Positions 5,862 to 60,344 of a stretch of 64,000 bases of DNA are shown in pieces. The position numbers and the translations under genes are program-made. Position 1 is the first letter of the stretch, and every line of letters begins with the position of its first letter. The notes under the pieces were generated by a model that was not told the origin of the DNA, made no database searches, and saw only the letters and a program-made list of their open reading frames with translations. Source of the DNA: Kiritimatiellia bacterium (GTDB lineage Bacteria > Verrucomicrobiota > Kiritimatiellia > CAIVKH01); the NCBI GenBank assembly GCA_023953695.1, contig JAMLJG010000003.1:7012-71011 (forward strand), written 5' to 3'.

Positions 5862-6071
5862 ATGCCGGTAAAACACATTCGCAATAAACATCTTCGTCGC
5901 AAGCGCAAGGGAGCTGCGGACAAGCGTCGTCGCGTGAAGGTCCAGAAGAAGCGCGTGGTCGCCCTCGGACTTCCGGCCGAGAAGGCTGAAAAGCTGAATC
6001 AGAAGGAAATTCGCACGCTGCTTCGCAACCCCAAGAAGACCGCAGCGCGCCTGACCAAGAAGTCCGCCTAA
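5862..6071 (+). CDS. Small, very basic hypothetical protein (69 aa, K/R-rich)
   Basis: ORF with AGGAAG Shine-Dalgarno 6 nt upstream. Composition MPVKHIRNKHLRRKRKGAADKRRRVKVQKKR... No family recognised. Confidence 0.5.
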   Translation: MPVKHIRNKHLRRKRKGAADKRRRVKVQKKRVVALGLPAEKAEKLNQKEIRTLLRNPKKTAARLTKKSA

Positions 6072-58041: not shown

Positions 58042-58668
58042 CTAATCCACCCACATCACTTCCGGCCGCAGGAAATCTACCGCCTCCCGGTCCACGACCG
58101 CATCCACAAAGGCTCTTCGCTCAGCGCGCGCCGACTCGGTTTCACCCGCAGACCAACCGCGAAAAAGCAACAACCCGCGCCGGTCCGTCATCGCCATCAA
58201 CTCCAGCGCGGTGCGCACCAGCGAGCGCAACACCGGAAGCAAAGCAATGGCCATCGCATAGTTCTCGTCGCGCTGAAACCGACTCCCATCCACGACAAGC
58301 ACCAATCCCTGGCTCAACGAGGACTCCTGCACTGGGCGCAACGATCCCGAAGCCAACGCTTGAATCGCATTCAGCGACAACCGCTCCACGCTCACGTGTC
58401 GCGCCAGCGGAACCGCACAAGGAGCCATGTGCGCAACCTCACGCGCCACCTCCGACTGATTGCACGCCGCGAGCGCGCGCGCATAAAGCAGAAGAGCCGC
58501 TTCCGGTTCGCGCAGGATGCCGCGGTCGCGTTCTTCAAAAAAATGAAGAACAGAATCCCATGCCGCGCGCAGCGCGTCTTTCGATGCAGGGTGCGCGCCG
58601 ATCGCCGATTGAACCAAAGGCTCAATCGCGTGTGACCACTTCAACTCGCCCTGAGAAGGAACAATCAT
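58042..58668 (-). CDS. Hypothetical protein, translationally coupled to nrdR (ATGA overlap)
   Basis: 208-aa ORF with protein-like composition on the same strand as nrdR. No family recognised by eye. Confidence 0.55.
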   Translation of the reverse strand: MIVPSQGELKWSHAIEPLVQSAIGAHPASKDALRAAWDSVLHFFEERDRGILREPEAALLLYARALAACNQSEVAREVAHMAPCAVPLARHVSVERLSLNAIQALASGSLRPVQESSLSQGLVLVVDGSRFQRDENYAMAIALLPVLRSLVRTALELMAMTDRRGLLLFRGWSAGETESARAERRAFVDAVVDREAVDFLRPEVMWVD

Positions 58669-59120
58669 TCGCGCCCAATCAATCCTTCCACTTCGCTCAA
58701 AAACTGATTCACATCGCGGAAGCGGCGATACACAGATGCGAAACGAACATACGCGACTTCATCAAGCTCTTCCAATTTATCCATCACCTTCTGCCCGATC
58801 ACCGTCGAAGGCACTTCGCGCTCATACTCGCTCTCCAATTCATTGACGATGGTGTCCACCAGCGTTTCGATCTGCTGAGTGCTGATGGATCGCTTCTCGC
58901 ACGCGCGCGCAATGCCACTCATCAACTTTTGGCGATCCAACTCCTCGTGACGTCCATCCCGTTTAATTATGCGAAGCCCGGCCTTCACAACCTCTTCATA
59001 AGTCGTGAAGCGATACCCGCACTGCAGGCAAACTCGCCTCCGCCGAATGACATCGCCGTCCCGGACCGTCCGGCTATCAATCACTTTATCGTCCTGATGG
59101 CTACACTTTGGGCATCGCAT
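58665..59120 (-). CDS. nrdR: Transcriptional repressor NrdR
   Basis: MRCPKCSHQDDKVIDSR...RRRVCLQCGYRFTTYE zinc ribbon plus ATP-cone domain. Confidence 0.96.
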   Translation of the reverse strand: MRCPKCSHQDDKVIDSRTVRDGDVIRRRRVCLQCGYRFTTYEEVVKAGLRIIKRDGRHEELDRQKLMSGIARACEKRSISTQQIETLVDTIVNELESEYEREVPSTVIGQKVMDKLEELDEVAYVRFASVYRRFRDVNQFLSEVEGLIGRE

Positions 59121-59234
59121 GGAAAAACCTCGCTACTAGATATAGCGTGTGGCCCAGCCTTTACCCCATTGGGAGGGGGGGTGTCAACTTCTTCCTAAAA
59201 CCACCTTGCCACGCCCGGACCAGTGGCGGTATGT

Positions 59235-59284
59235 AAAAAATGAAATGACGACTCTTTGACTGTGACATCGCGAGTCGTCATTTC
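59235..59284 (-). terminator. Strong rho-independent terminator (13-bp stem) on the minus strand
   Basis: GAAATGACGACTC / GAGTCGTCATTTC perfect inverted repeat with a 17-nt loop, followed on the minus strand by AUUUUUUA. Confidence 0.75.
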
Positions 59285-59324
59285 ACGTCCTGGCTGGAAA
59301 CAGCCAGGATCCTTTTAAGGCAGC

Positions 59325-59393
59325 CTATTTTTTCTTCTTCGCGGCCTTCTTCGCAGGCTTCTTGGCAGCCTTCTTAGCAGCTTTCTTTGCCAT
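59325..59393 (-). CDS. 22-codon Lys/Ala-rich small ORF (MAKKAAKKAAKKPAKKAAKKKK): small basic protein or leader peptide
   Basis: Strong SD GGGAGGGA 5-6 nt upstream of ATG 59393. TAG stop followed by GAAA-tetraloop hairpin (59289-59308) and the terminator above. Confidence 0.4.
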   Translation of the reverse strand: MAKKAAKKAAKKPAKKAAKKKK

Positions 59394-59720
59394 CTGTCAT
59401 CCCTCCCTTCCGTGTTGTTTGTGGTTCTCTTCAGCGATTGATAACGACGACATCCTGGCTATGCGGAGAAATGTCCGCGCATGAATTGGTTGACGACGAT
59501 CAGTTGCTGATCACGTGGCTCTCGATCAGCGATCTCGCGCACGCATCGAGAGCGAAACAAACGGAAAGAAAAAATTGTTAAATCAGAAAGCATAGTCGAA
59601 CGATGTGGAGCGCACGCGTATCTGTCGTTTAGCTGTCATCATTGCTACTCTGTTGACGAGAGAATAGGACCACTCGGAAATGACGTCAACATTCGTGATG
59701 CAAAATGTTGAAACTATTTT

Positions 59721-60344
59721 TCAGTCCTCATTTTTCAACAAACGATGATGCTCAGCGACAACGATGGAGCGCAGCGCATCATACGAAGCATCCAAACGAT
59801 CATTCACAATCAGATACTTGTACTCGCGCCAGCGACGCATTTCGTTCTCCGCCTGCTGCAATCGTCGCTCGATTACTGCGTCAGCATCTTTGCCGCGAAG
59901 ATGAAGTCGTTTGCGCAGAACTTCGATAGAAGGCGGAGCAATGAATGCATCCACAAAACCCCGACGCAATGCATCACTTGCAGGCAATGTCGAAAGCTTC
60001 TCGCGTATTTGCGAAGCGCCCTGAACATCAATATCCATCAGCACATCGCGGCCAGAGGCAAAACCGCGTTCGATAAAGCGACGCAGGGTGCCATAGCGAT
60101 GACCGTGCACCGTTGCATGCTCAACAAACTCATCGTTTTGCACGCGTCGCTCGAACTCCTCTTCAGAGATGAAGTAGTAGTCCGTTCCATCAATCTCCCC
60201 ATCGCGCGGCGCGCGCGTTGTGCAGGAGACGGAATAGACCATCTGGTGAAACTCGGCGAGCAAACGCTCGCAAAGAGTTGTTTTCCCGCCTCCAGAAGGC
60301 GCCGACACCACCACCAACAGCGAACGCACAGGCAATTCGATCAT
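59721..60344 (-). CDS. gmk: Guanylate kinase
   Basis: P-loop SAPSGGGKTT, YSVSCTTRAPRDGEIDGTDYYF. Confidence 0.95.
   Translation of the reverse strand: MIELPVRSLLVVVSAPSGGGKTTLCERLLAEFHQMVYSVSCTTRAPRDGEIDGTDYYFISEEEFERRVQNDEFVEHATVHGHRYGTLRRFIERGFASGRDVLMDIDVQGASQIREKLSTLPASDALRRGFVDAFIAPPSIEVLRKRLHLRGKDADAVIERRLQQAENEMRRWREYKYLIVNDRLDASYDALRSIVVAEHHRLLKNED

Follow-up and report, generated by a model that had tools for sequence, protein, structure and literature searches.

A conserved 22-codon lysine- and alanine-rich gene upstream of nrdR in Kiritimatiellia, predicted to encode a free-standing polycationic microprotein

The 64,000-nucleotide stretch of a Kiritimatiellia bacterium analysed here (contig JAMLJG010000003.1 of assembly GCA_023953695.1, positions 7,012 to 71,011; hereafter the window) carries, on the minus strand of the 600-bp gap between gmk and nrdR, a 22-codon open reading frame (ORF) that is rich in lysine and alanine. 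As orthologues are found near nrdR in relatives, substitutions fall at third codon positions and indels stay in frame, this ORF is a real gene, which is conserved and whose amino-acid sequence is under purifying selection. With slightly better than even confidence, it is proposed to stand alone as a monocistronic, strongly expressed unit whose product is a polycationic microprotein of 22 residues that resembles histone H1 tails or the protein Hc2 and would bind DNA or another polyanion.

A scan of species-representative genomes for the NrdR protein gave 80 loci, nearly all from metagenome-assembled genomes of Kiritimatiellia or of further lineages in the Planctomycetes-Verrucomicrobia-Chlamydiae (PVC) group; the closest encodes an NrdR 94% identical to that of the window. 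In 29 of the 80 loci, including most of the closest ones, an ORF of 17–96 amino acids composed of Lys, Ala and Pro (and in some cases Val) lies on the same strand as nrdR, 109–331 nt upstream of it. The initial annotation had made its proposal depend on conservation of the ORF and the hairpins in relatives, which these orthologues provide for the ORF. Over the window and seven related loci (L001-L007), the variable columns at codon positions 1, 2 and 3 number 3, 3 and 18, pairwise comparisons give 207 synonymous versus 18 non-synonymous codon differences, and all the indels of the ORF (3, 9 and 15 nt) are in frame. The orthologues are built of KKAA, KKPA and KKVA units. A metagenome scan with a pattern made of a Shine-Dalgarno (SD) sequence plus a start codon retrieved the identical 22-mer on one contig (L153) and a second true orthologue on another (L160).

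The sequences that would direct the expression of this gene are conserved as well. A sigma-70-like scan of the region returned TTGACG-N17-TATTCT, directly after gmk, as its sole match (9/12 positions). Both hexamers and their spacing are kept in the gap alignment of relatives, and exactly one TTGAC-N17-19-TAnnnT match, 143–386 nt upstream of the ORF, is present in 24 of 30 sequences; the predicted promoter combines the -35 and -10 hexamers, the 16–18 nt spacer and the position kept among relatives that characterize sigma-70-type promoters. A+T makes up 65% of the 40 nt that precede the -35 box, in a locus with 57% G+C, and the corresponding tract is 57–78% A+T in most relatives with a promoter match (24/30 sequences), whose loci are about 56–63% G+C. 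Transcription would start near 59654. The ORF itself follows an extended SD sequence, GAAGGGAGGGA or GAAAGGAGGGA being kept 5–8 nt before the ATG in most orthologous loci. The initial annotation had singled out this SD as unusually strong, and AAGGGAGGG indeed occurs only once in the whole window. With the usual 3' tail of 16S rRNA, CCUCCUUUC, which we assume here in place of this organism's own 16S sequence, the SD motif would pair over about nine base pairs. The small gene is predicted to be strongly expressed.

At the other end, a stable G+C-containing stem-loop (-22.9 kcal/mol) followed by a run of U forms a predicted intrinsic terminator at the 3' end of the transcript. The perfect repeat and U-tract of the initial annotation are both there, but the repeat is 14 bp and not 13 bp long; a simple terminator scanner missed the structure because its loop limit was 3–8 nt. 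When 13 stem pairs were compared in register over 14 distinct orthologous sequences, 97.8% of the cells were paired, versus 86.9% in shuffles, and none of 500 shuffles reached the observed value. Compensatory changes affect 7 of the 13 pairs, and the paired fraction falls to 34–54% in controls in which the stem was slid. The lower stem (AAAUGRCG/CGYCAUUU) hardly changes in sequence even between deeply diverged loci, in contrast to the covarying upper stem, a degree of conservation beyond what termination alone needs. Between the stop codon and the terminator, the orthologous loci have one or two hairpins of variable sequence. One of them occupies the same position of the 3' untranslated region (3' UTR) in all close relatives, with differing stem sequences and loops. 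The hairpin that the initial annotation had described as capped by a GAAA tetraloop is present, but GAAA is read only on the plus strand and the mRNA has UUUC; the loops differ in every relative (AUUGCU, GUGA, AUA, UUCG and others), so that there is no conserved GNRA tetraloop.

The product would be a polycation of extreme composition. With 12 lysines, a net charge of about +12 and neither acidic nor hydrophobic core residues, the 22-mer should be unable to fold on its own and would have to act through its charge. It has no match in Pfam (E <= 10) or NCBIfam (E <= 1). The orthologues, with their short Lys/Ala(/Pro) repeats and a length that ranges from 17 to 96 amino acids with the number of repeats, display a trait of Hc2/H1-like proteins. 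Those of 40–96 amino acids score 12–27 bits with PF07382 HC2 (best E = 4.5e-6; cut-off 40), at most 26 bits with NF038053, the Burkholderia H1-like model (best E = 9e-6; cut-off 80), and at most 18 bits with NF038052 (Hc2; cut-off 135); NF050153, the Rv3852 family, is matched at E = 1e-4, below its curated cut-off.

The closest known protein in kind is encoded within the same superphylum. Chlamydial Hc2 (HctB) is reported to be made of Lys/Ala-rich short repeats and to range from 165 to 237 amino acids through variation in the number of Lys-rich pentamers (PMC2848022), and the longer Kiritimatiellia orthologues align to the HC2 model. In contrast, the proteins found here have only 17–96 amino acids (22 in the window), their scores are below the gathering cut-offs, and these bacteria are not known to have a developmental cycle. 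Homology with Hc2 is inseparable from convergence. The H1-like proteins of Burkholderia, AlgP of Pseudomonas, mycobacterial Rv3852 and the tail of HupB share KKAA/PAKK-type repeats and a polycationic, presumably disordered nature with the small protein; however, they exceed 100 amino acids or are tails on folded domains, whereas here the repeat peptide is the whole protein. The case of AlgP (PMC9239181) indicates that polyphosphate granules, and not DNA, may be what proteins of this kind organise. From composition only, a role in binding nucleic acids or another polyanion would be expected for the peptide, DNA compaction being the most likely one. The tiny histone-H1/HU-tail-like basic protein that was among the suggestions of the initial annotation holds as the best reading, as far as a conserved and selected ORF and the composition-type Hc2/H1 matches of the longer orthologues can carry it.

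The following model can be drawn for the expression of this gene. Transcription would start immediately past gmk, at the conserved promoter (TTGACG-N17-TATTCT, preceded by the A/T-rich tract), would run through a leader of about 260 nt and would end at the intrinsic terminator about 115 nt before nrdR, which would insulate nrdR; the predicted mRNA is about 420 nt long. Translation would be driven by the extended SD of the 9-bp class, located behind a CA-rich spacer. In the subclade of the window, a CU-rich tract of the leader would pair with the SD, so that translation would probably be gated. Most likely, the peptide would be abundant and serve as a counter-ion, binding DNA or some other polyanion and compacting it.

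The leader is the least conserved part of this unit. Even relatives with NrdR 87–94% identical share little of its sequence; only its ends and the CU-rich tract are kept, whereas individual hairpins are not. Its length varies from 114 to 357 nt across the orthologues, a long leader being a feature of the family. This rapid divergence among close relatives argues against a riboswitch aptamer. A scan of the region against Rfam (E <= 10) gave implausible families only, with best scores of 21–22 bits versus gathering scores of 52–68, and none of twelve related or analogous loci had a match at gathering score; the cmscan search advised by the initial annotation thus assigns the region to no Rfam family. 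The inverted repeats reported upstream of the ORF were recovered by a repeat finder (59518-59526/59545-59553, 59506-59512/59524-59530 and 59651-59658/59684-59691). However, the GTTGACG/CGTCAAC pair extends over both the -35 box and the predicted transcription start and is therefore not an RNA hairpin; nor is it conserved.

The pairing of the CU-rich tract with the SD is the main consensus helix of the leader, and the only substantial one, according to RNAalifold on seven sequences (10 pairs, one-sided changes only). When the SD and the ORF were held fixed and the leader was dinucleotide-shuffled, the probability that the SD is unpaired was 0.25 +/- 0.12, versus 0.01 in the native RNA of the window. 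Over 21 loci, none of 25 shuffles was as low as the native leader in 6 cases (mean z = -0.71), and the energy of the anti-SD duplex was not significant against mononucleotide shuffles. It is plausible that the leader gates translation by SD occlusion in the subclade of the window, an effect that is unproven and not universal.

Two other ORFs of the leader were considered. A possible 19-codon upstream ORF (uORF) keeps its start, its stop and its 60-nt length without any indel in the window and six relatives (L001-L006), and is absent in a more distant subclade. Its variable columns are spread evenly over codon positions (16/17/16), with 48 synonymous versus 283 non-synonymous differences. Since its peptide is not conserved and it has no coding signature, it is retained as no more than a possibility; at best, it may matter as an act of translation, and it may equally be due to chance. 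A 44-amino-acid ORF (59593..59459) stays open largely owing to its passage through the CU-rich tract, is poorly conserved, has no match in Pfam or NCBIfam and was likewise discarded.

Several points weigh against the proposal of a DNA-compacting H1/Hc2-like microprotein with a gated translation. The matches to Hc2 and H1-like models are compositional and sub-threshold, so membership of these families is not claimed; a search for homologues of a 40-amino-acid orthologue at E <= 1 gave none, probably owing to low complexity. So short a peptide might have RNA, ribosomes or polyphosphate as its target instead of DNA. The conserved adjacency to nrdR could reflect nothing more than synteny. As for the leader, six loci (L009, L015, L019-L021 and L034) do not occlude their SD, and the helix between the CU-rich tract and the SD has no compensatory changes, the SD being invariant.

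A ribosome- or RNA-associated mini-protein is the main rival, because the expression signals would suit a role in the ribosome too. bTHX, bS22 and bL37 are ultra-short basic ribosomal proteins of about 24–33 amino acids that are highly expressed and easily missed in annotation; the peptide is similar to them in size and is, like them, very basic. The UP-like tract, the near-consensus promoter and the extreme SD are of the type found for the translation apparatus, and a second family of 17-residue Lys-rich mini-genes from soil metagenomes (see below), which has this layout too and whose leader is partly conserved, suggests a housekeeping role; the leader could then be an autoregulatory binding site of the peptide. 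However, a length that varies from 17 to 96 amino acids by gain and loss of repeats would be unusual for a fixed pocket of ribosomal RNA, and bTHX, bS22 and bL37 are Arg-rich or Arg/Lys-mixed, non-repetitive, of fixed length and without visible sequence similarity to the plain KKAA/KKPA repeat. No linkage to ribosomal genes was seen, nor any match to the ribosomal models of NCBIfam. This possibility is therefore judged unlikely, although it keeps an appreciable share of our confidence. Far less credit can be given to an RNA, small or dual-function, as the functional product, the ORF being incidental or secondary. In favour of it, the short transcript that is predicted (~420 nt) has a better fold than shuffles (z = -4.0), and the sequences of its 3' UTR and of the lower stem of its terminator are conserved beyond the needs of a terminator. 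Nevertheless, it is the amino-acid sequence of the ORF that is most strongly constrained in this region, the leader evolves fast, no Rfam family is matched, and the conserved SD and spacing to the start codon point to translation; we regard this reading as very improbable. The initial annotation had also envisaged a small RNA that codes for a protein behind a long structured leader, which is borne out in part: the predicted mRNA is monocistronic, short (~420 nt) and has a long leader, but the hairpins of this leader are not conserved and belong to no Rfam family.

The transcription of nrdR bears on the last alternative. In nearly all loci, whether or not they have the small ORF, a AGTTGACA -35 box with a TAnnnG-type -10 box precedes the nrdR ATG at a constant distance (L012, L016, L018 and L023 are examples that lack the ORF). 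In the window, the NrdR box next to nrdR (box 2) is recognizable, whereas box 1, 31 bp upstream of it, is degenerate. In 6 of the 7 relatives that have two matches to the NrdR-box core, the boxes are 31 bp apart, in agreement with the architecture given in PMC13584703, namely two partially palindromic 16-bp boxes with a linker of 15–16 bp. NrdR is described as often controlling its own transcription (PMC9110341). NrdR-box-like palindromes overlap the TTGACA promoter upstream of nrdR in L008, L009, L011, L019, L029 and L036; in the subclade of the window, box 1 is either changed to a G+C-rich palindrome (e.g. CCTACCGCCGGTAGG in L002) or degenerate. From these sequence features, nrdR appears to be transcribed from its own NrdR-box-bearing promoter and not by read-through. 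One locus without the small Lys-rich ORF (L012:2400-2760) has three tandem copies of a ~130-nt repeat (GCGACTGGGTTATCCAGCCAGC...GGGAGGGTC) upstream of nrdR. In another relative (L066), the small gene and nrdR are 1.9 kb apart, separated by an insertion with long reverse-strand ORFs (L066:1643-2701), possibly a mobile element. There, the small gene and its terminator are intact on the side of the insertion away from nrdR, and the nrdR promoter and NrdR box stay with the small gene.

The initial annotation had proposed that the ORF is a leader peptide whose Lys codons, coupled to a terminator/antiterminator switch, attenuate transcription into nrdR. As in the trp, his and thr attenuators, hairpins and a terminator come after a short ORF, here rich in Lys codons, and a gene of the same strand lies downstream. 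Moreover, a segment of the window's leader, GAUGUCGUCGUUAUCA (59437-59452, minus strand), is complementary to the 5' arm of the terminator (-14.3 kcal/mol, z = -3.3). However, neither the closest relative nor 13 others have this complementarity (z from -2.3 to +1.9, at scattered positions), so that the mutually exclusive pairings looked for are significant in the window only; being found in this genome and in no relative, it is probably due to chance. Unlike in the classical attenuators, the number of codons differs between loci, from 17 to 96, and purifying selection acts on the amino-acid sequence of the ORF. nrdR has its promoter and NrdR-box-like palindromes downstream of the terminator, and these also exist in loci that lack the ORF, and in L066 the insertion separates the small gene from nrdR, yet the small gene and its terminator are intact. 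Furthermore, we know of no link between nrdR and lysine supply, and no metabolic logic ties the two. As it lacks three defining features (a conserved antiterminator partner, a downstream gene devoid of its own promoter and a leader of fixed length with an unselected peptide), attenuation of nrdR is hardly credible.

The gap thus does not form a single structured element, as the initial annotation had supposed: its 545-nt minus-strand RNA does fold better than shuffles (z = -4.0, 0/100), but it contains two promoters, that of the small gene and that of nrdR. The ORF, its SD, the hairpin and the inverted repeats all lie where they had been placed, and the gap resolves into ordinary parts, i.e. 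promoter, leader, terminator and NrdR-operator elements arranged around a small gene (Table 1). The exact NrdR of the window is also encoded by the NCBI assemblies GCA_024102575.1 and GCA_023953705.1, in which the 600-bp gap is identical; on these contigs, no gene is called between gmk and nrdR. Exact look-up of 10 orthologous peptides in a collection of 15 billion proteins found none. The family is uncalled as a gene in the contigs and in the protein collection that were checked, in line with the earlier statement that the ORF is unannotated. In the literature, we found no account of such peptides in Kiritimatiellia, nor of stand-alone poly-Lys microproteins.

Table 1. Features of the gmk-nrdR region of the window and contigs of the second mini-gene family
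Feature	Position or contigs	Strand	Basis or remark
gmk (context gene)	59721..60344	minus	TIGR03263, E = 1e-65
A/T-rich tract, UP-element-like, before the -35 box	59692..59722	minus	A+T enrichment; putative function
Small-gene promoter, -35 TTGACG 59689-59684, 17-nt spacer, -10 TATTCT 59666-59661	59661..59689	minus	directly after gmk
5' leader, about 260 nt, fast-evolving	59394..59654	minus	predicted start to ATG
Possible 19-codon uORF (MMTAKRQIRVRSTSFDYAF)	59583..59642	minus	weak evidence
CU-rich tract AAUUUUUUCUUUCCGUUUGU, candidate anti-SD	59557..59576	minus	pairs with the SD in the minimum-free-energy fold
Extended SD sequence GGAAGGGAGGGA, preceded by a CA-rich spacer	59400..59411	minus	6 nt before ATG
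22-codon Lys/Ala-rich ORF MAKKAAKKAAKKPAKKAAKKKK plus stop codon (69 nt)	59325..59393	minus	orthologues and third-position bias
3'-UTR hairpin, 9-bp stem, UUUC loop	59288..59309	minus	perfect inverted repeat 59288-59296/59301-59309
Intrinsic terminator, 14-bp stem, 17-nt loop, U6 tail	59235..59285	minus	perfect repeat 59241-59254/59272-59285
nrdR promoter, -35 TTGACA 59187-59182, -10-like TAAAGG about 59163-59158	59158..59187	minus	-10 box putative
NrdR-box-like palindrome ACGCTATATCTAGTAG (box 2)	59133..59148	minus	fits core C.A.AY.T.G at -28 relative to nrdR
nrdR (context gene)	58665..59120	minus	TIGR00244, E = 1e-56
MAKKAAKGGKKKGGKKR-family contigs	L086, L088, L090, L092, L098, L100, L101, L103, L108, L115, L116, L120, L124		
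MAKKAAKGGKKKGGKKR-family contigs, rest	L130, L131, L133, L144, L146-L148, L156, L161, L164, L165, L167		

Two further ORFs of the window may be mentioned. A 208-amino-acid ORF (58042-58668, minus strand), which figures among the gene calls of the NCBI contigs and belongs to no family in Pfam or NCBIfam, overlaps the stop codon of nrdR by 4 nt and may be co-transcribed with it. The sole other Lys-rich ORF of the window (5862-6071, plus strand) encodes 69 amino acids rich in Lys and Arg (MPVKHIRNKHLRRKRKGAADKRRRVKVQKK...) and has no match in NCBIfam.

The same metagenome scan revealed about 25–30 soil or rhizosphere contigs, all G+C-rich, that encode a different peptide, MAKKAAKGGKKKGGKKR, of 16–17 amino acids. 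Its variation at wobble positions suggests that this ORF is translated. The layout is common to the Kiritimatiellia locus: an upstream terminator, a leader of ~130 nt, a CA-rich spacer, GAAGGGAGGGA, the mini-ORF and a strong terminator. The leader is partly conserved and includes a conserved GCC-loop-GGC hairpin; RNAalifold yields a 3-bp hairpin for this leader and nothing more, and no Rfam family is found at these loci. The gene neighbourhood is another one than in Kiritimatiellia: as judged by eye, the neighbours are ddl-, tgt-, yajC- and secD-like ORFs upstream and a large convergent ORF ending in ...RVRIWDG downstream. In one contig (L092:1583-1785, minus strand), the 17-residue mini-gene seems to be tandemly duplicated, with a second ...KKR stop and terminator ~190 nt upstream. 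This second family suggests that stand-alone poly-lysine mini-genes are spread beyond the Kiritimatiellia clade. More speculatively, and with only a slim chance of being right, poly-lysine peptides of 17–23 amino acids, represented by these two families with their common order of strong promoter, long leader, extreme SD, mini-ORF and terminator, could form a widespread, uncalled class of very abundant polycations, i.e. protamine- or polyamine-like counter-ions of the nucleoid, RNA or polyphosphate that control their own translation through the leader.

Genes that are so short and of such low complexity are removed by standard gene callers and by the filters of similarity searches, which is why a conserved gene with strong predicted signals went unseen in this lineage, and probably others in other lineages. 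For the annotation of the locus, an unusual attenuator before nrdR is no longer needed: the gap would hold the promoter and terminator of a small gene and then an autoregulated nrdR promoter. The peptide itself is a new, ultra-short form of a known kind of protein, the H1-like Lys/Ala/Pro-repeat proteins, for which we infer both function and regulation. Should it prove to be an abundant polycation, it would represent, in minimal and genetically encoded form, what protamines or H1 tails are elsewhere, and would bear on DNA compaction in PVC bacteria outside Chlamydiae.

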